Origin: Clostridiales bacterium
GTDB lineage: Bacteria; Bacillota; Clostridia; Oscillospirales; Oscillospiraceae
Assembly: GCA_004555205.1 (NCBI GenBank)
Contig: SFIY01000005.1
Location: 24,726-88,725, forward strand
DNA: 64,000 bases
Direction: 5' to 3'
The translations under genes were made by a program, and so were the position numbers. The notes under the pieces are model-generated. The model saw only the letters and a program-made list of their open reading frames with translations, did not search any database and was not told the DNA's origin. Positions 1-64,000 of this stretch are shown here, piece after piece (positions within the stretch are counted from its first letter, which is position 1; each line of letters begins with the position of its first letter).

Positions 1-442
1 CGTGGTATCCCATCTCCACCAGCACCGAGGGGAACCGCGGCTGACGCACCTCACCCAAGGCGGTGGTGGCGCGGGTGGTCACCCGATCGGGCAGCGGATA
101 GATCTTCTTGAGATTGTCGGCGATGATCTCCGCGCCGCGCCGTCCGTTGGTGCTGGTGGGATAGTAAAAGGCAACGATCCCCCGCGCTCTGCCCTCTACG
201 CTGCCGTCACCGGAGGCGTTGGAGTGCAGGGCAAGATAGAAGTCATACTGTCCGCGGTTGGCCTGCGCAATAGAGCTGGCAGCGGTCATGTCGGGCGAAT
301 TGCGGTCAAATTGAATACCGCTTGACAGCAGATACGGCTCCATGGCGTCGGCAATGAGATTCATGAAATATTCCTCAGAGCCGTTCCCCGTGATGTAGGG
401 ATTATACTCCTGTGTGGAGGGACTCAAATAAATTTTAGGCAT
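1..442 (-). CDS. N-acetylmuramoyl-L-alanine amidase (Amidase_3 type), N-terminal part only; C-terminus lies left of the window
   Basis: Not in the ORF track because it runs off the edge. Hand translation from ATG at 442 gives MPKIYLSPSTQEYNPY...FYLALHSNASGDG...FPSVLVEMGYH, the typical Amidase_3 motif context. SD AAAGGGG lies about 8 nt upstream. Confidence 0.8.
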   Translation of the reverse strand, partial: MPKIYLSPSTQEYNPYITGNGSEEYFMNLIADAMEPYLLSSGIQFDRNSPDMTAASSIAQANRGQYDFYLALHSNASGDGSVEGRARGIVAFYYPTSTNGRRGAEIIADNLKKIYPLPDRVTTRATTALGEVRQPRFPSVLVEMGYH

Positions 443-543
443 AGTCGTACCCCTTTCTTCCATCAATATATGGCGCGGCGCGGGAAAATGTGATAGAATA
501 GGGATAATATGTAAAGATTTTCTTCAGAAAGGCGGTGGGCGCC

Positions 544-1764
544 ATGCGTCCCTATGCGGCAATTACGGTCACCCCCAAGGGGGAATCTTCCCTCCTGAAA
601 GGCCACCCCTGGGTATATGAGGCAGAGGTCAGCGCCATTGACGGCGATGTCAAGGACGGCGACTTGGTGGATGTGCGCAGCCGTAAAGGCAGCTACCTTG
701 GCACCGGCTTTTATAACAGCCATTCCCTCATCCGCGTGCGCCTTGTCTCACGCAATGCCAACGACAGATTTGACGAGGCCTTTTGGGGCCGCCGGGTACA
801 GTATGCCTGGGACTATCGCAAAACCGTCATGGGGCAGCAGGACAGCCGTTGCTGCCGTATCATCTTCGGCGAGGCAGACCAGTTTCCCGGCCTGACAGTG
901 GACCGCTATGAAAATGTGCTGGTGGCGCAGGTGCTGTCGCTGGGGATTGAGCAGCGCAAGGATGTGATCTTTTCCCAGCTCCTGCGCGTTCTGCGTGAGG
1001 ACGGGCAGGAGATCGCGGGTATTTTCGAGCGCAACGATGTGTCGATCCGCGAAAAAGAGGGCATGGCACAGGGCAAGGGCTGGTATCTTTTGCCCGGCGA
1101 GTCCGCGCCCGACATGTCCGCCGTGGACATCACCGAGAACGGCATCGTCTATACGGTGGATTTCGTCAACGGACAGAAAACCGGCTTTTTCCTGGACCAG
1201 AAATACAACCGCCTGGCGGTCAGCAAGCTGGCCGAGGGCAAAACCGTACTGGACTGCTTCACCCATACCGGCTCCTTTGCCCTCAACGCCGCCAAGGGCG
1301 GCGCCAAGCATGTTACCGCCGTGGATGTGAGCGATTTTGCCGTGCAGTGCGCCCGGGAAAACGCGCGGCGCAACGGTCTGGACGGTGTGATGGAGTGCGT
1401 ATGCGCCAATGTATTTGAGCTGCTGCCGGAGCTGGAAAAGCAGCCGCGCCGCTATGATTTTATTATTCTCGATCCGCCGGCCTTTACCAAAAGCCGCAGA
1501 ACCGTTGCCAAGGCCATGACCGGCTATAAGGAGATCAACTACCGCGCCATGAAGCTGCTGCCCCGCGGCGGCTATCTGGCCACCTGCTCGTGCAGTCACT
1601 TCGCCTCGGAGGAGCTGTTTATCACCATGCTCCGCAGTGCCGCCGCTGACGCCGGCGTACAGCTCCGGCAAATCGAGGTGCGCCAGCAGTGCGCCGACCA
1701 CCCCATCCTCTGGGGCGTGGAGGAAACCAATTATCTCAAATTTTTCCTCTTTCAGGTGGTCTGA
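544..1764 (+). CDS. Class I SAM-dependent rRNA (cytosine-C5) methyltransferase, RlmI/YwbD-like (PUA + MTase)
   Basis: ORF 535..1764. N-terminal LLKGHPWVYEAEV PUA-like start, SAM-binding LDCFTHTGSFAL and DPPAF motifs. ATG at 544 preferred over GTG at 535. Confidence 0.8.
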   Translation: MRPYAAITVTPKGESSLLKGHPWVYEAEVSAIDGDVKDGDLVDVRSRKGSYLGTGFYNSHSLIRVRLVSRNANDRFDEAFWGRRVQYAWDYRKTVMGQQDSRCCRIIFGEADQFPGLTVDRYENVLVAQVLSLGIEQRKDVIFSQLLRVLREDGQEIAGIFERNDVSIREKEGMAQGKGWYLLPGESAPDMSAVDITENGIVYTVDFVNGQKTGFFLDQKYNRLAVSKLAEGKTVLDCFTHTGSFALNAAKGGAKHVTAVDVSDFAVQCARENARRNGLDGVMECVCANVFELLPELEKQPRRYDFIILDPPAFTKSRRTVAKAMTGYKEINYRAMKLLPRGGYLATCSCSHFASEELFITMLRSAAADAGVQLRQIEVRQQCADHPILWGVEETNYLKFFLFQVV

Positions 1765-1813
1765 GGCGATAATATATTGTATTTTCTACCTTGTATATTG
1801 TTCTTTTAATCTG

Positions 1814-1843
1814 AAAAAAGGTGCGCTTTACGCGCACCTTTTT
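1814..1843. terminator. Bidirectional rho-independent terminator between convergent rlmI-like gene and putP
   Basis: A-run, GGTGCGC stem (1820-1826), loop TTTAC, GCGCACC (1832-1838), T-run. Confidence 0.75.
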
Positions 1844-1853
1844 CTTGTATCTC

Positions 1854-3386
1854 TCACGCTTGGCCTACCTTTACCCGCTCAAATTCCGCATCGATGGAGG
1901 CGTCCGTCTGCTTGGTGCAAAGGGATACCGCCACAATGACCAGTGAGCTGAAAATAAACGCCGGCAGCAGCTCGTAGATCCCCCATATGCCGCCCAGCGG
2001 CTTTATGACGCCGCGCCAGAAGAACACCATCGCGCCGCCGGAGATCATGCCTGCAATGGCCGCGGGATAGGTAATGCGCTTCCAGAACAGGGAGAAGAGC
2101 ATCAGCGGACCGAACGCCGCACCGAAGCCCGCCCATGCAAAGGCGGTGATACCGAAAATGGTAGAGTTGGAGTTCCAGGCAATGACCATGGCAATGAGGG
2201 TAATCACCGTAAGGGTAATGCGGGTACACCACATCACCTGTTTCTCCGTGGCGTTCTTTTTCAGAATACCGCGATAGATATTCTGGCTGACGGCACTGGC
2301 GGAAATCAGCAGATAGGAGTCCGAGGACGAGATGGCGGCCGCCAGCACGCCGGCGCAGGCAAATCCCGCCAGCACAGGGGGCAAAAAGCGGGTGGCCGCG
2401 TCAATAAATACATTTTCCGCATCGCTGTTGGACAGATAATCCAGCCCGGTAACGCTGCGCGCCACAATGCCAATGAGCACGGCCGCCGCCATGGAGATGA
2501 CGACCCACACGATGGCCACGCGGCGGGACAGGCGCAGTTCCTTCTCCGAGCGGATGCCCATGAACCGCAGCAGTACCTGGGGCATGCCGAAGTAACCCAG
2601 ACCCCAGGCCAGGCACGAGGCGATAGACAGCACGCCGTAAGCCTTTCCTTCGCCGAATGTGTTGACCTCTGCCGTGGAGGGCGTGGCTGTGGCAAACAGG
2701 GAGAAAAATCCGTCGTATTCCTTGGCGTTTGCCATGGCAGCGGCGAAGCCGCCCGCCTCGCCTACGGACAAAATGAGAATGAGCACCAGTACGGAGACCA
2801 TCACCACCGCCTGCATGAAATCCGATGCGCTCTCGGCCAGAAAGCCGCCCAAGAAGGTGTAGAGCAGCACGAACACCGCCGCCACGATCATCATTCCCTC
2901 ATAGGACAGTCCGAACAAATTGGCGAACAGCTTGCCGCAGGTGCTCAGGCACTGCGCGGCGTAGACGGAGAAGAATACGATGATCGTCAGCGAGGAGACC
3001 ATCATCAGCACCTTCTTCTTTTCATGGAACCGGTGCGAGAAGAAGTCCGGCACCGTAAAGGCGTTCACCGCCACGCTGTAGCGCCGCAGCCGCTTGGACA
3101 CGATCAGAAAATTCAGATAGGTGCCCAGCGCCAGACCGATGCAGGTCCAGCCGGCGTCCGCAAGTCCCGTCCAGTACGCCAGACCCGGCAGGCCCATCAG
3201 CAAATAGCCGGACATATCCGACGCCTCGGCGCTGAACGCCGTTACCCACGGGCCCAAGCTCCGCCCGCCTAAAAAATAGGACTCCGCGTCCTTGTTGGCG
3301 CGGCGCGCAAAAATCACGCCGATCACCACCACCGCCGCCATGTATAGCGCCATGGCCAACAGGTGTTGTATGTTTTCCGTATTCAT
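1854..3386 (-). CDS. putP: Sodium:proline symporter (SSF family)
   Basis: Track ORF 1854..4406 is a read-through fusion. The real start is the internal MNTENIQHLL... ATG at 3386. SYFLGGRSLGPWVTAFSAEASDMSGYLLMGLPG is the PutP signature region. 510 aa with many TM segments. Confidence 0.85.
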   Translation of the reverse strand: MNTENIQHLLAMALYMAAVVVIGVIFARRANKDAESYFLGGRSLGPWVTAFSAEASDMSGYLLMGLPGLAYWTGLADAGWTCIGLALGTYLNFLIVSKRLRRYSVAVNAFTVPDFFSHRFHEKKKVLMMVSSLTIIVFFSVYAAQCLSTCGKLFANLFGLSYEGMMIVAAVFVLLYTFLGGFLAESASDFMQAVVMVSVLVLILILSVGEAGGFAAAMANAKEYDGFFSLFATATPSTAEVNTFGEGKAYGVLSIASCLAWGLGYFGMPQVLLRFMGIRSEKELRLSRRVAIVWVVISMAAAVLIGIVARSVTGLDYLSNSDAENVFIDAATRFLPPVLAGFACAGVLAAAISSSDSYLLISASAVSQNIYRGILKKNATEKQVMWCTRITLTVITLIAMVIAWNSNSTIFGITAFAWAGFGAAFGPLMLFSLFWKRITYPAAIAGMISGGAMVFFWRGVIKPLGGIWGIYELLPAFIFSSLVIVAVSLCTKQTDASIDAEFERVKVGQA

Positions 3387-3401
3387 CAATTTTCTCCTCT
3401 C

Positions 3402-3430
3402 TTGACAATTGACACATGAAGATTTATAAT
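3402..3430 (+). promoter_or_regulatory. Consensus sigma-A promoter for the LysR-family gene
   Basis: TTGACA (3402-3407), 17-nt spacer, TATAAT (3425-3430), about 75 nt upstream of the ATG at 3507. Confidence 0.7.
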
Positions 3431-3471
3431 GTATCATATCAATAATTTGAATGTATGGGCGTATCATATCA
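3431..3471. promoter_or_regulatory. Two exact copies of GTATCATATCA spaced 30 bp apart; candidate LysR operator
   Basis: GTATCATATCA at 3431-3441 and 3461-3471, in the putP/lysR divergent intergenic region just downstream of the -10. Confidence 0.4.
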
Positions 3472-3506
3472 CCGTGCAGAGGAAAAAGCAAGGGGCGGTC
3501 AGTTAA

Positions 3507-4397
3507 ATGGATGTTAAGAAATACGAGGTCTTTGTAAAGATTGTGGAGAAATCCTCCCTGACCAAGGCGGCGGAGGCGATGGGGCTGACCCAGTCCGGCG
3601 TGAGTCATATCGTTGCCGCCATGGAATCGGAGCTTGGCGTTGCCCTGCTGCGCCGCAGCCGGACCGGCGCGGTGCTTACACCGGAGGGCGAACGGCTCAT
3701 GCCGCATATCCGCGCCATTGTGACGCAGGAAACGCAGCTTCGCCATGCAGCGGAGGCGCTGCGTTCCCAGGTGGCGGGAAAGCTGCGGGTGGGCACCTTC
3801 ACCAGCGTGGCGACCCACTGGCTTCCCGCCATGATGATGGAATTTCAGCGCCTGCATCCGTCGGTGGAATTCACGCTGTTCAACGGCGATTACCATGATG
3901 TGGTACGCTGGCTGGAGGACGGCAGCGTGGACCTGGCGTTTACCGCCGTACCGGCGCCGGCGGACTGCCGCTGCATCCCGCTGTACCGCGATCCGCTTCT
4001 GGCGGTACTGCCCCGGGGGCACCGCCTGTGCCGTGTCCCGGTCTGTCCGGCGGAGGAGCTTGCGAAGGAGCCGATGATCGGCCTGCCGGATAACTCCGAC
4101 CACGATATACGGCGCGCCCTCGCCGCCGTCGGCAGCAAGCCGGACATCTGTCTGCGCACGAAGGACGACTATGCCGTTATCGCCATGGTGCGGCAGGGGC
4201 TGGGCGTGAGTATCATGCCGTCGCTGCTCCTGCACGGCAACAATGACGGCGTGGAGCTGCGGCCGCTGGACCCGCCGGCAAGCCGCACCATTGAGCTGGC
4301 CCTGCCGGCCGGCGATATCCGTCCCGGTGCGGCGGCCTTTGCCGAGTTTGCGGCCGCCTGGGTGCGCGACAACGAAAAGAAGGCGTTCTCTCCCTGA
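3507..4397 (+). CDS. LysR-family transcriptional regulator
   Basis: N-terminal wHTH (FVKIVEKSSLTKAAEAMGLTQSGVSHIV) plus a LysR substrate-binding domain. Divergent from putP. Confidence 0.85.
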   Translation: MDVKKYEVFVKIVEKSSLTKAAEAMGLTQSGVSHIVAAMESELGVALLRRSRTGAVLTPEGERLMPHIRAIVTQETQLRHAAEALRSQVAGKLRVGTFTSVATHWLPAMMMEFQRLHPSVEFTLFNGDYHDVVRWLEDGSVDLAFTAVPAPADCRCIPLYRDPLLAVLPRGHRLCRVPVCPAEELAKEPMIGLPDNSDHDIRRALAAVGSKPDICLRTKDDYAVIAMVRQGLGVSIMPSLLLHGNNDGVELRPLDPPASRTIELALPAGDIRPGAAAFAEFAAAWVRDNEKKAFSP

Positions 4398-4409
4398 TCG
4401 CAGCAAAAA

Positions 4410-4442
4410 AATAAGAGGTACGCACGGTGCGTACCTCTTATT
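4410..4442. terminator. Bidirectional terminator
   Basis: 15-bp perfect stem AATAAGAGGTACGCA / TGCGTACCTCTTATT with a 3-nt loop, flanked by an A-run and a T-run. Confidence 0.8.
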
Positions 4443-4453
4443 TTCATTTTCGC

Positions 4454-6193
4454 TCAGGTTTTCGGCACAAGTGAGACGGCATAGGTGTCAAGGATCGTCT
4501 CCTCACCTGCCATATACTGTACCCTGACGGTATCGCCAACGCTCAGCAGCGCCGCGCTGCGCTGATCGGCAGAGGAAACGGCATAGTACACATCCCCCTG
4601 TTCCAGACGCAGATAGTACCAGGTGTTGCCCTCGATAACGGCACTGCGAATTTCAGCGATCACGCCGGTGACCTCCTGCTGATCGGAGGGCTGTACCTCC
4701 GTGTCCTCCTGGGAGATCAGGTTGTTCCGCGCCAGCATCACGCGGTAGTTGCTCTCACACTCGGCAACCGTATTGCCGGTGGCCACGATCTGGTACTGGC
4801 TGACATTGACCATCGCATACATCTTCACCAGACCTGCGGCATCCTTCAGCGCCATGAAATAGGTGGGCTGGTCGGAAATGTTCAGCAGCAGCGGGAAGGT
4901 GGCCTCATACTTCATCTGCTGCACCTGACCCTGGGCACTGTCCATGGCGGAATATTCCTCCGCACCGGCCACAGAGTAAAAATGGGTTTCCTTGGTGCGC
5001 TGGTTGGACAGAATGAAGCCGATGTTGGATTCATCACTGACCACCGAGGTGATGCCGGTATACATATACACATCGTCACCGATGGCAATATAGTTGTAGC
5101 CGTCCGTGGTCACCGTCACATCGCGCTGACCGAACAGGGAATTGATGAAGCCGTTCACATAAGTGCCGTGGTAGTCATATTGCTGGATAATCAGGTTGGC
5201 GGTATACACATGGTCCACCCACTGGGGCACATCGTCCACCTCGTAGTAGGTGCACTCGCCGCTGACGGCATCCACCAGCACGGCGCCGATAATGTCCGTA
5301 CCGCCGAACAGACCGATGGTGCGGCTGATACGCGGGCACACCCAGTAGGGATTGCCCTGCTCATCGATCTCAAAAGCAGGCTCATCAAAAAGGTAGGTGG
5401 GATAGTGGAAACGCAGATAGCGGTAGAGATTGCGTCCGAAATGCTCCGCCGTGGTGTAGCGAATACCGTCCTCCAAACGGTGGACTTCCACATTCTGGGT
5501 CACCATGTCGATGACCAGATAGGCGGGCAGGCCGTCGGCACGGTTATTAAGCCACTTGATGATGTCGCCGTAGCGCAGGGGCGTCACACGGACGGGACGG
5601 CCCTTAAAATTGATCTGGGTGTAGTCGTCGGCCACTTCAAACTGAGATACCATGTCTGCCAGCTCGCCCAGCTTGCGGTTGCCCAGCTTCTTGGCGCTGG
5701 CGCTGTCCAGCATGGGGATCTGGTCAAAGCTGATCTCCTCCACTTCGGCGGCAAAGTCGCCCTCTTCCACCGCCAGCAGGTCACGGTAATCCGCAGCGCG
5801 GAATACCTCCCACGAAATAATGGAGCCCACCAAGGCCACAGCCAGCAGGCCTACCGTCAGGAAAAAAGGCACCTTGCACTGCTTTTTCACAAATTTGAAA
5901 TAGCCCTTGGCACCTGTCCCCTGAAAGCCGGAGGTAATCACGGCGCACACACAGTACACCACGGCCAGCAGCACAAAAAAGGTGTAAAACTCCGCCGTTT
6001 TGAGGTTGATGGCCGGCAGTACCACATAATAGTAGACGGCGGCAAACAGCAGCGTCACCGCCAGATTGATGGCCGTGCGTGCCGCAGGCGTGCCGATGGG
6101 CTTGCGTTCCTTCTTGGGGCGGTTCGTTTTGCGTGCAAAGGGATTTTGCCCCGCAAAGCCCTCAAAATTGGGGTCATTCCAATTAACGTTCAT
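4454..6193 (-). CDS. Conserved membrane-anchored protein of unknown function (3-4 N-terminal TM segments, about 440-aa extracytoplasmic domain)
   Basis: 579-aa ORF with SD AAGGAG 7 nt upstream of the ATG at 6193. Basic cytoplasmic N-terminus followed by hydrophobic helices. I recognise no catalytic motif. Confidence 0.6.
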   Translation of the reverse strand: MNVNWNDPNFEGFAGQNPFARKTNRPKKERKPIGTPAARTAINLAVTLLFAAVYYYVVLPAINLKTAEFYTFFVLLAVVYCVCAVITSGFQGTGAKGYFKFVKKQCKVPFFLTVGLLAVALVGSIISWEVFRAADYRDLLAVEEGDFAAEVEEISFDQIPMLDSASAKKLGNRKLGELADMVSQFEVADDYTQINFKGRPVRVTPLRYGDIIKWLNNRADGLPAYLVIDMVTQNVEVHRLEDGIRYTTAEHFGRNLYRYLRFHYPTYLFDEPAFEIDEQGNPYWVCPRISRTIGLFGGTDIIGAVLVDAVSGECTYYEVDDVPQWVDHVYTANLIIQQYDYHGTYVNGFINSLFGQRDVTVTTDGYNYIAIGDDVYMYTGITSVVSDESNIGFILSNQRTKETHFYSVAGAEEYSAMDSAQGQVQQMKYEATFPLLLNISDQPTYFMALKDAAGLVKMYAMVNVSQYQIVATGNTVAECESNYRVMLARNNLISQEDTEVQPSDQQEVTGVIAEIRSAVIEGNTWYYLRLEQGDVYYAVSSADQRSAALLSVGDTVRVQYMAGEETILDTYAVSLVPKT

Positions 6194-6273
6194 AGATGAC
6201 TCCTTTCCGATTCAAAATAATAGCTGTTGCTATCGTATCATAGTTTGCGCCATGGCTCAACCTTTTTTTCAAA

Positions 6274-6303
6274 ATACAGCCGCCGTAGGTAGCGGCGGCT
6301 GTA
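6274..6303 (-). terminator. Terminator downstream of clpC
   Basis: ATACAGCCGCC ... GGCGGCTGTAT hairpin directly after the clpC stop (6309), followed by a U-rich tract on the minus strand. Confidence 0.65.
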
Positions 6304-6308
6304 TTTTT

Positions 6309-8765
6309 TTACTTTTCAATGACCACCTTGCCGTCCTTCAAGCGCACATGGGCGGTATCGCCGCTGAGCAGCTTGCCCTCCAGCATCAGCTCGGCCACGG
6401 CGTCCTCCACCGTGTTCTGGATGGCACGGCGCAGGGGTCTGGCACCGTACTGGGCATCGAATCCGGTCTTGGCCAGTGCCGCCACGGCGTCATCGTCGGC
6501 CTGCAGCGTAATGCCCTGCTGGGCCATACGCCCGCCGGTCACTTCCAGCATACGCCGTGCGATCTTGCGGATGTCCTCCTCATCCAACTGACGGAACACG
6601 ATGGTCTCGTCAATACGGTTAAGGAACTCCGGACGGAAGGTGCGCTTGAGCTCCGCCATGACCGCTTCGCGGATGCGGGCAAAGCGCTTGGCCTCGTCAT
6701 TCTCCTGCTCGCCGCCATCAAAGCCCAGTCGTGCCGTGTCGGCGGCGGTAATGTTCTTGGCGCCCACATTGGAGGTCATCACGATGACCGTGTTCTTGAA
6801 ATCCACCCGCCGGCCCTGGGAATCGGTCACAATGCCGTCCTCCAGAATCTGCAGCAGGATGTTCCACACATCCTCATGGGCCTTTTCTATCTCGTCGAAC
6901 AGCACCACGCTGTAGGGCTTGCGGCGCACCTTCTCGGTGAGCTGGCCGCCCTCTTCGTGGCCCACATAGCCCGGAGGAGAGCCGATCAGGCGGGATACGG
7001 TGTGCTTTTCCATGTACTCCGACATATCAATGCGGATCATGGCATTCTCGTCACCGAACATGGCCTCTGCCAGCGTTTTGCACAGCTCCGTCTTGCCCAC
7101 ACCGGTGGGGCCCAGGAACAGGAACGAGCCGATGGGCCGCTTGGGGTCTTTCAGACCCACACGGCCGCGGCGAATGGCCTTTGCCACGGCAGTAACGGCT
7201 TCATCCTGGCCTACCACGCGCTCATGCAGCGTGTCTTCCAGGCGCAGCAGGCGCTGTCCCTCATCTTCCGTCAGCCGCGTCACGGGGATACCCGTCCAGC
7301 CTGCCACCACGGCGGCAATATCGTCGGCAGTCACACTGCCGCGATTCTGCTGCATCTGGCGGTGCCACTTGTCCCGCTCGATCTCCACCTGCTCGGTGTA
7401 GTTCTTCTCAATATCGCGCAGCTGCGCGGCCTTTTCAAAGTCCTGTGCGGCAATGGCCTCCGCCTTTTCACGGTGCAGCGCGGCGATCTTCTCCTCAAGG
7501 GACTTCAAATCGGGCGAGGCGGATTCCGCCTTCATGCGCACCTGGCTTGCCGCCTCGTCCATCAGGTCAATGGCCTTATCAGGCAGGAACCGGTCGTTGA
7601 TATAGCGGCTTGAGAGCATGACCGCCGCTTCGATGGCCTCATCGGTAATGGTCAGCTTGTGATGGGCCTCGTACTTATCGCGCAGGCCCTTCAAAATCTC
7701 CACGGATGTCTCTGCGGTAGGCTCGCCCACCGTCACCGGCTGGAAACGGCGCTCCAGTGCGGCATCCTTTTCGATGTATTTGCGGTATTCGTCCAGCGTG
7801 GTGGCGCCGATCACGCGGATTTCGCCACGGCCCAGGGCAGGCTTGATGATATTGGCGGCATCCACCGCGCCCTCTGCGCTGCCTGCACCCACGATGGTGT
7901 GCAGCTCGTCGATGAACAAGATCACATTGCCGGCCTGCTTGACCTCCGCCAGCGTGTTTTTGATGCGCTCTTCAAATTCACCGCGGTACTTGGTGCCTGC
8001 CACCATGCCCGAAAGGTCAAGGGACAGGATCTTCTTATCCAGCAGCTCCTCCGGCACATCGGCTGACACAATACGCTGCGCCAGACCCTCGGCGATGGCG
8101 GTCTTGCCCACGCCAGGCTCACCGATCAGTACGGGATTGTTCTTCGTGCGGCGGGAGAGGATCTGAATCACACGCTGTACCTCCTGCTCGCGGCCGATCA
8201 CCGGGTCCAGCTTGCCCTCACGGGCCGCCTCGTTCAGGTCGCGGGTAAATTCGGACAGCGTCTTGCCCTTCTTGCCCTCCTCCTTATTGGGTGTGGCCGC
8301 ACCGCTGGTGACGGTGCGCGGCGATTCGTTGAGCTTCTTCACCACGCTTGCATACATCTTGCGCGGGTCCACGCCTACGGTACGCAGAACGCGCAGCGCC
8401 ATGTTGTTGCCCTCCCGCAAAATACCCATCAGGAGATGCTCCGTGCCGATGTATGTGCAGTTTGTGCGGATGGATTCCGAAACGGCCAGCTCCACAATGC
8501 TCTTGGCCCGGGGCGTCAGACCCTGGGAAGGCGCTGCACCGGCAAGTCCGGTGCCTACCGTGCGCTGCAAAATGGAGCAGATCATCTCGTCCGTCAGGCC
8601 GTATTCCGTCATCACGCGGTGGGCAATGCCCTCTTCCTCACGCATCAACCCCAGCAGCAAATGCTCGCTGCCCACATAGCCGTGACCCATTTCCTCGGCG
8701 GCTTCCTGCGCCAGACGCAGGGCTTCCTCCGCCCGGGGGGTAAACTTATTTTCACGCATATTCAT
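6309..8765 (-). CDS. clpC: ATP-dependent Clp protease ATP-binding subunit ClpC (class III stress AAA+)
   Basis: Clp_N repeats, two Walker A motifs ([16 protein letters not shown]) and a UVR-like middle domain. Start set at the [11 protein letters not shown] (8765), which has AAGGAG upstream. Confidence 0.95.
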
Positions 8766-60516: not shown

Positions 60517-61569
60517 TTAGTTCAGATCGTCGAAGCTGTCAGCGGTGACAATGCTCTGCACCTTGGTGCAGAGAGGAGCAAATGTGCTCCGGATGGTCTC
60601 AAAATCCAGGCCCAATTGCCGGCAGGTCTCCGTGTTGACGGTAGCAGTGCCGTTATCAAAGGTCTTCACCGAAAGCGTAGCAGGTTCGGCGCCGTTGAGC
60701 AAGATTTCTGCGATCATATTGGCCGTTTCCACGCCCAGATTGGTGTAATCCACGCCGTAGCCGAGAAATGCGCCGTTGAGTGCAAAGGAATCCGCGCCGG
60801 TGTAATGGGGGATACCGGCCTTTGCCAGCGTTTCATAGATAGACAGCTCCGCCGTCATGATGGTGTTGTCGGTGGGTGTGAAGATAGCGTCCACCTGATC
60901 GTTGATCAGTGCGTTGACAGCCAGCATGACCTCGTCGGTGGTGGTACCGGTGCGCTCGACGCACTTCACGCCCTTGGCAGCCAGATATGCCTTGGCATTG
61001 TTGATGGGTGTGGTGGACGAATCCTGACCCGGATCGTACAGCAGGCCGATGGTGTCCGCATCGGGATCCGCCGCGAAGATCAGATCCAGAATGGCGTCGG
61101 TATCCAGATAGTCGGAGGTGCCGGTGATGTTGGCGCCGGGAGCCTCCAGGCTTTCCACCAGGCCGGCGTCTATGGGGTCGGACACGGCGGCAAAGATAAC
61201 GGGAATACCGGTATCCTCCGTAGCCGCCTGCATGGCCATGGCCACAGGCGTTGCCACGCCCACCATCAGGTCCACCTGATCGACAATGAAGTTGGAGATG
61301 ATCTGGTTCATCACGGTGGCGTCGGCGTTGCAGTTATCATATGCAATGTCGAAGGTGACACCCTGCGCCTGGCCGATGGCGTTGAGCCGCGCGGTGATAT
61401 TGTCAACGATCTGGTTCAGGGATGCGTCGTCCACATAGTTGCAGATGCCGACTTTGAAGGTCTTGCCGTCAGCAGGTGCGTCGTTCTTGCTGCCGCAGGC
61501 GGCCAGCGTCAGCAGCATGATCGCTGCAGCCACCAGGGAAATAATGCGCTTCAATGTGTTCTTTTTCAT
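60517..61569 (-). CDS. ABC transporter substrate-binding lipoprotein (COG2984 type); predicted tryptophan-related uptake
   Basis: Start MKKNTLKRIISLVAAAIMLLTLAACGS (lipobox) with GGAGGT 8 nt upstream. The track ORF is over-extended into the leader. Confidence 0.85.
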   Translation of the reverse strand: MKKNTLKRIISLVAAAIMLLTLAACGSKNDAPADGKTFKVGICNYVDDASLNQIVDNITARLNAIGQAQGVTFDIAYDNCNADATVMNQIISNFIVDQVDLMVGVATPVAMAMQAATEDTGIPVIFAAVSDPIDAGLVESLEAPGANITGTSDYLDTDAILDLIFAADPDADTIGLLYDPGQDSSTTPINNAKAYLAAKGVKCVERTGTTTDEVMLAVNALINDQVDAIFTPTDNTIMTAELSIYETLAKAGIPHYTGADSFALNGAFLGYGVDYTNLGVETANMIAEILLNGAEPATLSVKTFDNGTATVNTETCRQLGLDFETIRSTFAPLCTKVQSIVTADSFDDLN

Positions 61570-61655: not shown

Positions 61656-61941
61656 CAAAAAAGAGCCTCCGTCCCCTACTATGGGACAAAAGCTCCAGCT
61701 TCTGCGATACCACCCAAATTGGCATATAAAATGCCCGCTCGCTTTCCGCGCCATCACGCGTACCCGATGGATAACGGGTGGGATCCCGTCGGCATCTACT
61801 GAGAAATCATTCCGTTCAAGCCGCCCTCGAAAGGCCATTCACATCACCGCGCACCGCCTTGATCTCACCGCCCAAGGCTCTCTTTGGGATTGCTTTGTCA
61901 TGCTACTTTTCTTTCTCACAGGTTTGTTTGTTTAATTGCTA
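61656..61941 (-). ncRNA. T-box leader (tRNA-sensing riboswitch), specifier UGG = Trp
   Basis: Minus-strand reading shows: AGTA, AGAGAG bulge, GCCTTG-GGCGGTGAGAT-CAAGGC distal loop, GAA-UGG-C specifier (UGG = 61845-61847), F-box CCGTTA, T-box AATTTGGGTGGTATCGCAG (61702-61720), and a 13-bp terminator helix plus U6 (61656-61696). Confidence 0.85.
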
Positions 61942-62090: not shown

Positions 62091-62098
62091 TTTTCTCA

Positions 62099-62143
62099 TG
62101 GAGCTGCTGGGCGGATTTGAACCGCCGACCTCATCCTTACCAA
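62099..62143 (-). other. 3' half of tRNA-Thr(GGU), anticodon loop to CCA; att-type remnant, not a complete tRNA
   Basis: Minus strand: TTGGTAA-GGATG-AGGTC-GGCGG-TTCAAAT-CCGCC-CAGCAGC-T-CCA, i.e. anticodon loop (GGU), 3' anticodon stem, variable loop, T-arm, acceptor 3' strand, discriminator and CCA. The upstream sequence (GCCGG...) cannot pair with GGATG, and there is no D-arm or 5' acceptor strand. Confidence 0.75.
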
Positions 62144-62330
62144 CCGGCTTATCCCTCTCCAGTCACTGCTATACAAGGTTTTCCGGACTTTTTGACTGCA
62201 AACAGGAGGCTATCGGATTCTGTTTATCCCACTGCTTCCGTTCCCCGTGTGGGCCAGAAAGAGGAGCCACGGATTGGAATCAACCTTCCAAAAATGGCAA
62301 CACTGTAACCATAGAAAAGGTCACCCATGG

Positions 62331-63200
62331 CTACATGAAGAAACTGTCTATTTCTTCACGACAGGAAAGAATATCTTCATCTCTCACTCCTGCGGCTTTT
62401 GCCAGAAGGATAGATTGTAAGAAAGCATTTCTGAAATTCGGGACGAACGCATTTTCTACCAGTAAGTAGAACTGCTCGGCTTGATTATTCAGCTCTGCAA
62501 GAAAAAGCGTATATTTATGCTCCAGTTCCTCATCCAGCTGATACTGAGATATGATAAACTGGTTTACGATTTCCTGCTCTCTTCTGTAAAGCATCAATCT
62601 TCCATACTCAAATGCGAAGGATGCCACTGCCTGAGAAAAATCAGTAATTCTCTTATCGCCCATCAGTGCTGTCGCAGAAGCAAGGAGCTTTACCATCGCT
62701 TCAAGAGCAGCCCATAAGCAGTCTTCCGTGTACTTTACCTCGGTAATGATTCCGTTCCGCAACAATTCTGCGTTATTGTGAAGTTCATCGGCCAAGGCAT
62801 TGATTGTGTCGATAATCTTAGAGGGAACAACGCCTTTTATCAGTTCAGCAGAACAACGAATGTATCTTTCGAATAGGGTGAAGATGAAAACGCTGTATTC
62901 CTGATCGCTCGGAAGAATCGCAAACTTTGATACCGCACCGGCGATGTCCTTCCAATCGTCTGCTTCAAACTTTGATGGACTTTTGCCTTCCGCAATTTTA
63001 CGCAGAATAGCAAATGTCGCTATCGTTGCAGCTTTCCCGCCGGTCAGCTCCTGCTCGCCCCGCTTTTCAAGAATGGCATAGAAATGGTTTTGGACTACCT
63101 GAATCGTCTCCATTGCCTGTCCGAGTTTTTCGCCAACAGGAGTATTCAATAGTTGGTCTAATGCCAGGTTTTTCAGGTAACTCTTAAGATTGTTCTCCAT
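62331..63200 (-). CDS. Hypothetical protein, 289 aa, helix-rich by composition, no TM segment, no family recognised
   Basis: ATG at 63200 with GGAGAGG upstream. Overlaps the stop of the upstream gene by 17 nt. AT-rich codon usage unlike the host genes. Confidence 0.65.
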   Translation of the reverse strand: MENNLKSYLKNLALDQLLNTPVGEKLGQAMETIQVVQNHFYAILEKRGEQELTGGKAATIATFAILRKIAEGKSPSKFEADDWKDIAGAVSKFAILPSDQEYSVFIFTLFERYIRCSAELIKGVVPSKIIDTINALADELHNNAELLRNGIITEVKYTEDCLWAALEAMVKLLASATALMGDKRITDFSQAVASFAFEYGRLMLYRREQEIVNQFIISQYQLDEELEHKYTLFLAELNNQAEQFYLLVENAFVPNFRNAFLQSILLAKAAGVRDEDILSCREEIDSFFM

Positions 63201-64000
63201 TTTCCTCTCCGATTATCTTTCCAAACAGCGCAGCCAGCGCCTTGGTATTATTTACCAATGCTCCCAGGAGATACTTTTGTTCTTCATCAAGAGATAAGTA
63301 GTCTGCGCCATACAGGGGCAATGCTCTTGCCAACATATCATTTAATCCTGTCCGTGTCATGGCCGTTTCGGATAGGACCACACCAATTTTAGCATCCATT
63401 TCACGCACCGACTCAATGTTCTGCTTGACAGCTTGAATCTCTTGATTCTTCTGCTTATTCAATTTAGTCTTCTTTGCAGTGAAAATCAGTATAGAGGACA
63501 GCAGAGTTGCTCCGGCAATCGTCCAGCCAACAGGGCCGGCCAATGCCAGCAAGGCATTACCCGCCGCCATTCCACCGCCGCTTGCAGCAAGCGCGCCACC
63601 GCCGAGCCAAGCCAATGCTGCATTTGTTGCCGCGGCACCTGAGAGCGTTGAAATTGCTGCGCCAGTAGACGCAGTGCCAAATGTAGTTGCTATCCACATG
63701 GCCGCAGTAGGTGCCATAAATGCTACGGAAGCACCGGCGGCTAATCCTGCACCTGCTCCCGTGGCTGCTTTTCTTGCTTCCTGAAGCTCACGATTCGCAA
63801 ATTCACAGGAATCCGTAAATTTTTTCCTGTTGGTCAGAATCTCTTCAAATTCTGCGTCAAAAGACTTCGGGCGATTTGCGATACTGTTAACAAGGCCCTC
63901 TACAAAAGATATAGTATCAACTGCGCGGCTTCTCTCAACATAGAGCCGTATCCCTTTATCGTTCATCATGGTGTAAGCATCATTATATTCCGTTACAGCT
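63184..64000 (-). CDS. Hypothetical membrane protein with a Gly/Ala-zipper hydrophobic core; probably 5'-truncated by the window edge
   Basis: The track starts it at ATG 63969, but the frame stays open to 64000 (..AVTEYNDAYTMMNDKG..) and there is no SD before 63969. Residues about 68-164 of the visible part (nt about 63478-63768) are small-xxx-small repeats (GAGAGLAAGAS, LAWLGGGALAASGGGMAAGNALLALAG). These are flanked by charged regions that are probably helical. Confidence 0.65.
   Translation of the reverse strand, partial: AVTEYNDAYTMMNDKGIRLYVERSRAVDTISFVEGLVNSIANRPKSFDAEFEEILTNRKKFTDSCEFANRELQEARKAATGAGAGLAAGASVAFMAPTAAMWIATTFGTASTGAAISTLSGAAATNAALAWLGGGALAASGGGMAAGNALLALAGPVGWTIAGATLLSSILIFTAKKTKLNKQKNQEIQAVKQNIESVREMDAKIGVVLSETAMTRTGLNDMLARALPLYGADYLSLDEEQKYLLGALVNNTKALAALFGKIIGEENGEQS

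Follow-up and report, generated by a model that had tools for sequence, protein, structure and literature searches.

Introduction

PDC-M09 is one of the 145 phage-defence candidates that were added to PADLOC. It is listed as cassette CAS_00055 (FAM_02775>>FAM_02807), with the remark 'Assign as candidate PDC-M09' and a count of 380, in supplementary table 8 of Payne et al., who searched for homologues of their cassettes in RefSeq v209 (bioRxiv 10.1101/2024.01.29.577857). The PDC candidates are computational predictions, obtained through 'guilt by embedding' in restriction-modification (RM), BREX and DISARM loci (bioRxiv 10.1101/2024.01.29.577857). Embedding in an RM type I, BREX or DISARM system applies to at least one founding instance per profile and is not demanded of every member. 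In a later study, eight candidate systems (seven PDCs and one HEC) were assayed and four were active; PDC-M09 was not included (PMC12881386). A second group of proteins that bears on the present work are the bacterial dynamin-like proteins BDLP1 and LeoA, in which a hydrophobic, Gly-rich paddle at the tip of a helical trunk inserts in the bilayer (PMC4159319). Here we describe a pair of genes, A and B, found at the right end of a 64,000-nucleotide stretch of DNA (the window) from an Oscillospiraceae genome (Clostridiales bacterium, GenBank assembly GCA_004555205.1, contig SFIY01000005.1, positions 24,726 to 88,725 of the forward strand), and compare it with both groups.

Results

A translationally coupled gene pair related to PDC-M09

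The main features of the pair, in window coordinates, are as follows.

62331 to 63200, minus strand: gene B (short PDC-M09B), 289 amino acids (aa), acidic, modelled as all-helical, without a long hydrophobic segment
63184 to 64000, minus strand: 3' part of gene A (PDC-M09A), codons 71-341 and the TAA stop; the frame is open at base 64000
63184 to 63210, minus strand: coupling junction, with a Shine-Dalgarno (SD) sequence GGAGAGG at 63204-63210, the ATG of B at 63198-63200 and the TAA stop of A at 63184-63186
63475 to 63768, minus strand: membrane domain of A (residues 148-245), uncharged, delimited by composition and hydropathy, conservation, and alignment with LeoBC and helix-turn-helix (HTH) dynamins

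The two genes overlap by 17 nt (63184-63200) on the minus strand, and GGAGAGG lies close upstream of the ATG of B at 63200. Both the overlap and the separate SD of B, which an earlier note made from the letters of the window had reported, can be read directly in the sequence. That note had also supposed that A is larger than its visible part. An exact look-up found B in 129 blocks of a public assembly collection, and one contig (ENA ERZ27309564 k141_16398, called L008) matched the final 10 kb of the window with 100 % identity and was therefore used to extend it. Full-length A is indeed larger, with 341 aa encoded at L008 3085-4110; its start, preceded by AGGAGG, lies 70 codons past the window edge, and a promoter-like TTGACA-18-GATAAT is present at L008 2898-2927, about 160 bp upstream of the A start.

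Comparison with the profiles of PADLOC identified both proteins. A matched PDLC04406 (PDC-M09A) with an E-value of 3.6e-121 over profile positions 10-326 of 330, and PDLC04407 with 1.6e-92. B matched PDLC04408 (PDC-M09B) with 1.5e-26, only over profile positions 264-485 of 486 (46 %). Neither protein gave anything above noise in Pfam, NCBIfam or PHROGs, and sequence searches of the PDB found no relatives of A or B as single proteins, nor of the profiles of A and of the long form of B described below. The pair had been described as having no recognisable family, a statement which holds for Pfam, NCBIfam, PHROGs and PDB sequences but not for PADLOC-DB, where both members match PDC-M09. Cluster members of the family carried no names from any source, and A and B are not paralogues of each other (hhalign probability 1 %). 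Judged by these profile matches, the pair is a short-B variant of the catalogued candidate cassette PDC-M09, and we have little doubt that it is a PDC-M09 relative that forms a self-contained, two-gene, membrane-associated module.

Distribution and conservation of the pair

The A family comprises 3,069 cluster representatives at E<=1e-3, 392 of them at E<=1e-30, and a scan of one genome per species confirmed at least 406 encoding loci. Eighty of these loci were kept. They represent Clostridia, Streptococcus and Erysipelotrichaceae, a large number of Actinomycetota (Nocardia, Arthrobacter, Collinsella, Bifidobacterium) and a single member of the Desulfovibrionaceae; most of the hosts are commensals of the gut or actinomycetes of soil. 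The pair is also carried on lactococcal, Rhodococcus and Curtobacterium plasmids.

A co-oriented homologue of B follows A immediately in 73 of the 80 loci and in two phyla, Bacillota and Actinomycetota. Co-occurrence of the two genes across genomes, which the earlier note had left as a point to be checked, is therefore borne out. Using the long-B profile, further B open reading frames (ORFs) that had been missed, or that are truncated or split, were recognised in L085, L067, L056 and L035; most of the loci that still have no B stop at a contig edge. The spacing between A and B was -20 to +26 nt in nearly all of the 73 loci, the outliers being over-extended ORF starts in crude gene calls. No third gene was conserved beside the pair among the 80 loci, and the cassette is thus a self-contained two-gene unit.

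A was more conserved than B in every locus. Median identities to the window proteins were 67 % for A and 39 % for B in loci with a short B, and 52 % and 25 %, respectively, in loci with a long B. A conserved A next to a fast-diverging B is the asymmetry that would be expected of an effector beside a specificity or sensor partner.

Short and long forms of B

The B proteins fall into two classes.

Long B: 48 loci, about 485 aa, both phyla
Short B: 25 loci, about 290 aa, only in Bacillota, mostly gut or rumen Clostridia; the partner A is always at least 54 % identical to the A of the window

Short B corresponds to long-B profile positions ~258-485, preceded by about 55 unrelated residues. It does not have the N-terminal domain of long B, which spans about 200 aa, contains the motifs NRGG..G.HGFIAE, NGP.DL, IQQKF and YQIP.D, and is highly conserved across phyla, with invariant H74, E79, D109, Q118, K120, H136 and D155. 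The hydrophobic segment GQxxIPxPVLGAVIGNTVG of long B is also missing from the short form. Since no other ORF in the short-B loci supplies the missing N-terminal domain, the locus in the window is a minimal variant of the cassette, which appears to have lost this domain and the hydrophobic segment.

The N-terminal domain of long B had no relative in Pfam or the PDB, and a Pfam search with six long-B proteins gave no match. The spacing E79...D109...Q118-x-K120 in long B (for example, L045 8855-10315 from Coprococcus comes, and L057 8926-10392) recalls PD-(D/E)xK nucleases, a resemblance that we offer as a guess.

B itself has a pI of 4.8 and a single weak hydrophobic peak. It was modelled with AlphaFold2 (AF2) from a shallow alignment restricted to homologues of at least 56 % identity, and the model was all-helical, with a predicted local distance difference test score (pLDDT) of 71.5 and a predicted template modelling score (pTM) of 0.50. 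This agrees with the helix-rich composition noted earlier. A Foldseek search of the PDB with the model gave no significant match (best E 0.22).

Anatomy of A

Residues 148-245 of A form a stretch of 98 residues without a single charge, of which 49 % are Ala or Gly, and which contains 41 small-xxx-small pairs in 96 positions. Lys/Arg-rich segments lie on both sides. A small-xxx-small stretch of roughly 95 residues with charged flanks had been reported before, and the measured extent and flanks agree well with that description. The length of the domain fits two to four membrane helices. Column conservation in A was 0.72 in the membrane domain, 0.39 in the flanking stalk helices and 0.13 in the N-terminal extension, and 12 residues of the membrane domain are invariant, most of them glycines (including G178, G183, G191, G203, G204, G217 and G228). 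This pattern is the opposite of that of a simple membrane anchor.

An AF2 model of A, based on an alignment of 58 sequences, had a pLDDT of 75 and a pTM of 0.67. Helices were predicted at residues 25-109, 115-151, 237-299 and 309-329, with the hydrophobic domain lying between the two halves. Block means of pLDDT reached ~85-99 at residues ~60-140 and ~250-330; the membrane domain was modelled with low confidence, and values fell below 50 at residues 191-240. The N- and C-terminal halves of A thus model as one long helical stalk with the membrane domain at its tip. The core of A (residues ~55-335) also stands alone in proteins of ~280 aa, and it forms the C-terminal module of proteins of 450-780 aa, among whose varied N-termini are Zn-ribbons and an ADP-ribosylglycohydrolase domain.

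A Foldseek search of the PDB and of the viral structure library BFVD with the A model gave no match at E<=1e-3. The uppermost PDB matches were the ClyA pore protomer (2wcd_A, probability 0.98), SmhB, AhlB and AhlC, interspersed with designed bundles and coiled coils of axonemes. One possible reading is that A and B are a secreted binary alpha-pore-forming toxin of the ClyA/YaxAB/Smh type, or an LXG polymorphic toxin with its immunity protein, directed against other cells. The matches speak for it, as does the general plan of a long helical bundle with a hydrophobic tip, which A shares with the pore formers. However, the matches were non-significant (best E 0.018, TM-score 0.29-0.34, root-mean-square deviations above 20 A, with 23 A for ClyA), and B had no such match. 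A Pfam search found no LXG, WXG or other secretion-related domain in the proteins, no hydrophobic core resembling a signal peptide was seen at either N-terminus on inspection by eye without a predictor, and the Lys/Arg-rich flanks of the hydrophobic domain point to a protein that resides in the membrane. In addition, conservation is concentrated in the C-terminal module and variation in the N-terminal parts, which is the reverse of the arrangement in polymorphic toxins, and no genes of type VII or type VI secretion systems recur among the neighbours. We therefore consider a secreted toxin of either kind very improbable, and the likeness of A to ClyA, which is a lead only, is an analogy of shape. 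Of the three readings put forward in the earlier note, this disfavours two: the LXG or polymorphic toxin with immunity protein, for which there is no trafficking domain and the modularity is reversed, and the binary alpha-helical pore former, given the non-significant ClyA/Smh/Ahl matches of A, the lack of any for B and the lack of a visible signal-peptide core.

The membrane domain of A resembles that of LeoBC-type dynamins

When diverse A proteins were compared with the PADLOC profile LeoBC (Eleos), 51 of 58 matched at E<=1e-3, with a best value of 5.8e-10. Bona fide HTH-dynamin proteins gave 2e-12 against the same part of the profile, which is comparable to the values for A. Residues 12-294 of the A in the window aligned with LeoBC positions 302-547 of 601, and for a lactococcal A the match lay on the membrane domain, at positions 457-543. 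Profile comparison by hhalign of the A alignment with HTH-dynamins gave a probability of 72-85 % and E-values of 7e-6 to 3e-5, and aligned A residues 215-294 with positions 605-684 in a dynamin-family protein of lactococcal origin. A and the HTH-dynamins also have in common the motif AL(A/G)GPxxWxI, located inside a similar Gly/Ala-rich hydrophobic stretch. At the level of sequence, the LeoBC-type membrane domain is the only reproducible relative of the Gly-rich domain of A. The similarity is located in a low-complexity hydrophobic segment, so that part of the LeoBC score could be compositional; nevertheless, we consider the two membrane domains to be probably homologous. The earlier premise that a glycine zipper points to a pore former needs revision, since the sole reproducible sequence relative is the membrane domain of a LeoBC-type dynamin.

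Genes for dynamins were found next to the pair in a few loci. On the Lactococcus lactis plasmid pSD96_06 (NZ_CP043518.1 13958-25033; locus L089), a canonical pair with a long B lies between two HTH-dynamin genes that are 90 % identical and in opposite orientation; genes for a DUF262/HEC-06-type protein and for a DUF4230 protein are located on opposite sides. The A homologue of this locus is also present on three other lactococcal dairy plasmids. In a further locus, L088, an HTH-dynamin is encoded two genes away from the pair. Overall, a dynamin gene was nearby in only 2-3 of ~80 related loci.

These observations may indicate that the pair serves constitutive membrane maintenance or remodelling and that A is no suicide effector. 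A would be a GTPase-less relative of the stalk and paddle of bacterial dynamin-like proteins that scaffolds, seals or curves the membrane under envelope stress, either alone or together with dynamin-like partners, and B would be its cytoplasmic adaptor. Any effect on phage would then be indirect, as reported for DynA of B. subtilis, whose role in phage resistance is cited in PMC11381338. The LeoBC similarity is family-wide, hhalign ties A to the HTH-dynamins, lactococcal plasmids and L088 carry the pair next to genes of the dynamin family and for DUF4230 proteins, and the Gly-rich paddle of BDLP1 and LeoA is a membrane-inserting tip (PMC4159319), all of which speak for such a role. On the other hand, neither Dynamin_N nor any other GTPase domain was found in A or B by Pfam search, and a Walker A motif is absent from both. 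The scarcity of nearby dynamin genes and the much faster evolution of B than of A also count against maintenance. We consider this explanation, the main rival of a defence role, to be unlikely, and return to it below.

The pair is carried on a small islet at a tRNA gene

Two features in the window mark the right end of the islet on which the pair is located.

62091 to 62143, minus strand: attR-like direct repeat of 53 bp, in which the 3' end of tRNA-Thr(GGT) and a few following bases recur at a displaced position
62144 to 62330, minus strand: non-coding right end of the islet, from the stop of B to the att repeat, with no ORF that has homologues

The intact tRNA-Thr(GGT) with the other copy of the repeat lies outside the window, at L008 1984-2067. 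At L008 2015-2067 and 5151-5203, the copies agree with 100 % identity and lie at a distance of 3,136 bp from each other. Within the window, Rfam gave a weak match to a tRNA-like 3' end at 62110-62127, and ARAGORN found no tRNA, 62091-62143 being a 3' fragment only. No terminator-like hairpin was present in 62144-62330. Between the repeats there are only A, B and an orphan ORF of 97 aa, with no integrase and no phage genes. The GC content of the islet is 40-50 %, compared with 55-63 % in the flanking operons (T-box/ABC transporter, asd and thr). The earlier claim of an island next to an att site is correct as regards the att site, which is a perfect 53-bp copy of the tRNA-Thr end; the island itself is an islet of just 3.1 kb without an integrase.

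The 97-aa ORF (L008 2266-2559) encodes an acidic protein, lies upstream of A, has the SD AAGGAGG and is kept in a variant that does not have A and B. It was considered as a third component and rejected, as it matched no family and has no counterpart by homology in the 80 other PDC-M09 loci.

On a contig from a pig-gut metagenome (ERZ940877; locus L001), three copies of the att repeat are present, and an element of 7.7 kb is located between the tRNA-Thr and the islet. This element (442-7920) encodes a tyrosine integrase, an HTH repressor-like gene product, a D5_N/NrS1-type primase and several small ORFs, and looks like a satellite or a small integrative element. The sequences just inside the att copies at the left end of the element and of the islet are 78-82 % similar. 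The picture is one of tandem accretion at a tRNA hot spot, with an islet resembling a cis-mobilisable element (CIME).

The islet content varies. A sequence from Logan (SRR31546783; L095 1-1010) keeps the 97-aa gene, with 94.6 % identity, and is without L008 2622-5306, a segment that includes attR and the old tRNA terminator besides A and B. The pair is thus variably present among strains. A further sequence, L092, also diverges upstream of L008 5307, a point that may mark a recombination junction. The contigs returned when the flanking ABC-transporter gene was looked up mostly break at the repeat. JGI metagenomes, a collection from which the species is absent, contained 0 empty att sites and 0 junction copies of any kind.

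The location of the pair is relevant to three of the alternatives. The first is that A and B are a lysis or structural pair (holin/spanin or tape-measure-associated) from a decayed prophage. The att repeats that flank the locus would fit, and there is a weak PHROG match to a tape-measure family (E 0.029). However, the family gave 1 weak partial match in 50,697 phage records and 11 loci in 2.9 million viral contigs, in contrast to the at least 406 loci among species-representative genomes. No significant match was found in BFVD, and the islet contains no phage genes. Near-absence from phage genomes excludes a lysis or structural role, and a decayed-prophage origin of this kind is, in our judgement, extremely improbable. 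A match to a phage structural or holin family was what the earlier note had named as evidence against its own proposals; no confident match of this kind emerged from the searches.

The second is a toxin-antitoxin-like addiction or immunity pair, with A as a toxin that depolarises the membrane and B as the cognate neutraliser; the main role of the two would then be to stabilise the islet or the plasmids, and not to sense phage. Tight translational coupling, strict co-occurrence, the location on an integrase-less islet and on plasmids, and the partnership of a membrane-active domain with a soluble acidic protein are all in keeping with it. Against it, the putative toxin gene precedes that of its partner, the size of the two proteins is large for a type II pair, and the pair is stably chromosomal in streptococci and Nocardia. 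Canonical B, with its additional conserved globular domain and hydrophobic segment, is also unlike a simple antitoxin. We regard addiction as improbable, and note that it would be compatible with a role in defence.

The third is membrane maintenance. Carriage as low-GC cargo of an att islet, and absence from a related strain, would be unusual for a housekeeping function and argue against it.

Evidence for and against a defence role

We tentatively read the pair as a membrane-acting defence module, with A as the putative effector and B as the putative sensor or regulator. This assignment falls somewhat short of being probable, and we hold an anti-phage role of the pair, taken by itself, with the same reserve. 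Several points favour it: the candidacy in PADLOC, the mobility and accessory status of the islet, carriage on plasmids, the effector-sensor asymmetry of A and B, the near-absence of the family from phage genomes, and a DUF262/HEC-06 protein as neighbour of the pair in four contexts. The remaining proposal of the earlier note, the effector module of a defence or abortive-infection system, is therefore the one that fits best, as the pair is PDC-M09; the label is itself a prediction, and enrichment of defence genes in the neighbourhood is weak.

A number of observations weigh against this reading. PDC-M09 was put forward as a prediction alone (bioRxiv 10.1101/2024.01.29.577857), and a full-text literature search for 'PDC-M09' yielded no paper and no experimental test; lactococcal defence papers do not mention the pair. 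B covers just 46 % of the PDC-M09B profile, and coverage filters in PADLOC might miss the locus. Among 150 flanking proteins from 37 sampled loci, those of defence type were YhcG/PDC-S02 (twice), ResIII (twice), N6_Mtase (once) and mad1/2 (twice), RM-type neighbours being rare, and the commonest neighbours were DUF4230 (5), DUF6591 (4) and MerR (3). In five mitis-group Streptococcus genomes the pair occupies the same slot between housekeeping genes, those for a CoaB-like ligase, formate-tetrahydrofolate ligase and lysyl-tRNA synthetase, which looks like stable vertical inheritance. The LeoBC similarity is concentrated in a low-complexity hydrophobic segment and its score may be partly compositional, and no structural match points to a particular activity of A or B. 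Two of these observations, the weak enrichment of defence genes and the conserved housekeeping slot in streptococci, also favour membrane maintenance.

Proposed mechanism

If the pair is a membrane-acting defence module, it may work as follows. Positive charges on both sides of the hydrophobic domain of A make it probable that this domain traverses the membrane, or dips into it, in an even number of passes, with the stalk in the cytoplasm. Co-translated B would bind the stalk and hold A inert. B would be the variable, target-facing partner, and a phage cue acting on B would free A. In the freed protein, the invariant small-residue faces of the helices would repack or oligomerise, and the membrane would be disturbed. 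The outcome could either be depolarisation or leakage, leading to abortive infection, or a remodelling like that by the dynamin paddle, which would block phage entry or lysis. This trigger-and-release scheme, taken specifically, is doubtful.

We also consider it possible, though unlikely, that PDC-M09A is a GTPase-less offshoot of the stalk-and-paddle proteins that acts as a stand-alone immune effector, with the LeoBC-type Gly/Ala domain, in place of a toxin-type pore, as the active element and the short-B form as the minimal two-protein version. If this were true, Eleos dynamin immunity and PDC-M09 would share one membrane mechanism, which could be studied in a system of 630 residues without nucleotide hydrolysis.

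Other genes near the pair

In several short-B loci (for example, L020 6746-7687 and L032 6709-7635), A is immediately preceded, on its own strand, by genes for a MerR regulator and a DUF6591 protein. DUF4230 proteins are encoded near the pair in five loci. Neither DUF4230 nor MerR/DUF6591 is universal.

Next to the islet in the window, a T-box leader (61679-61928, minus strand; Rfam RF00230, 102 bits) precedes an ABC-transporter operon that encodes a substrate-binding protein (60517-61569) followed by a permease and an ATPase, which suggests amino-acid-responsive control. The T-box is the sole Rfam family at gathering score in the 64-kb window. On the other side, beyond a tRNA-Asp/tRNA-Thr pair, L008 158-1690 encodes a RelA_SpoT protein of 220 aa, of the small alarmone-synthetase type, that matches PADLOC PDC-S33 (E=1e-22). 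In most strains it adjoins an HTH protein of 307 aa, and it may be a second candidate defence or toxSAS gene at the tRNA hot spot.

Discussion

The novelty of these findings is moderate, in that the family itself is already in PADLOC; new here are the class of short B proteins, the link to dynamins and the setting on an islet. With a stalk and a dynamin-paddle-like membrane domain in A and a fast-evolving B, the cassette gains an anatomy, and an anonymous pair of hidden Markov models becomes a testable hypothesis. The short form of B is a natural minimal variant, widespread in gut Clostridia, and shows which half of B is dispensable. The candidate also becomes linked to Eleos and the bacterial dynamins, which form the least understood of the membrane-based classes of immunity. 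If the pair is defensive, the 3.1-kb islet would exemplify defence cargo at a tRNA hot spot without an integrase of its own. If it is not, the family would call for caution in reading 'guilt by embedding' candidates as defence systems.

How does the locus compare with the systems already described? It resembles PDC-M09 in the end-to-end profile match of A, the match of B, and the same gene order, strand and tight spacing. It differs in that B has 289 aa instead of the canonical ~485 aa and is without the conserved N-terminal domain and the hydrophobic segment, and in that it lies outside any RM, BREX or DISARM system, with tRNA genes and the T-box/ABC-transporter operon as flanks.

As a genetic element, the islet is similar to a CIME in having perfect att-type repeats of a tRNA 3' end and no integrase, and in the tandem arrangement in L001 with an integrase-bearing element at the same site. 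However, it is only 3.1 kb in length with three genes, and the L001 tandem is indirect evidence for a possible mobilisation in trans.

With the ClyA family (ClyA, SmhB, AhlB/C, YaxAB), A shares the elongated helical bundle and hydrophobic tip, and two adjacent genes are also the arrangement of the binary members. Unlike in these toxins, the charge pattern of A is that of a resident membrane protein; A has no significant sequence or structural similarity to them, and B does not share their fold.

Compared with Eleos (LeoA, LeoB, LeoC), BDLP1 and DynA, A and B are without a GTPase domain and without Walker A, there is no LeoA-like partner in the islet or its flanks, and dynamin structures were not among the top 50 Foldseek matches of A. 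Going by the published description of the paddle (PMC4159319), the 98-residue membrane domain of A looks longer than that of BDLP1 and LeoA. The likeness lies in the helical stalk, modelled in the case of A, with a hydrophobic Gly-rich membrane tip, and in the LeoBC matches of the A family, the AL(A/G)GPxxWxI motif and the occasional dynamin neighbours. A is best described as a GTPase-less relative of the LeoBC-type stalk-and-paddle, and not as a toxin-type pore former.

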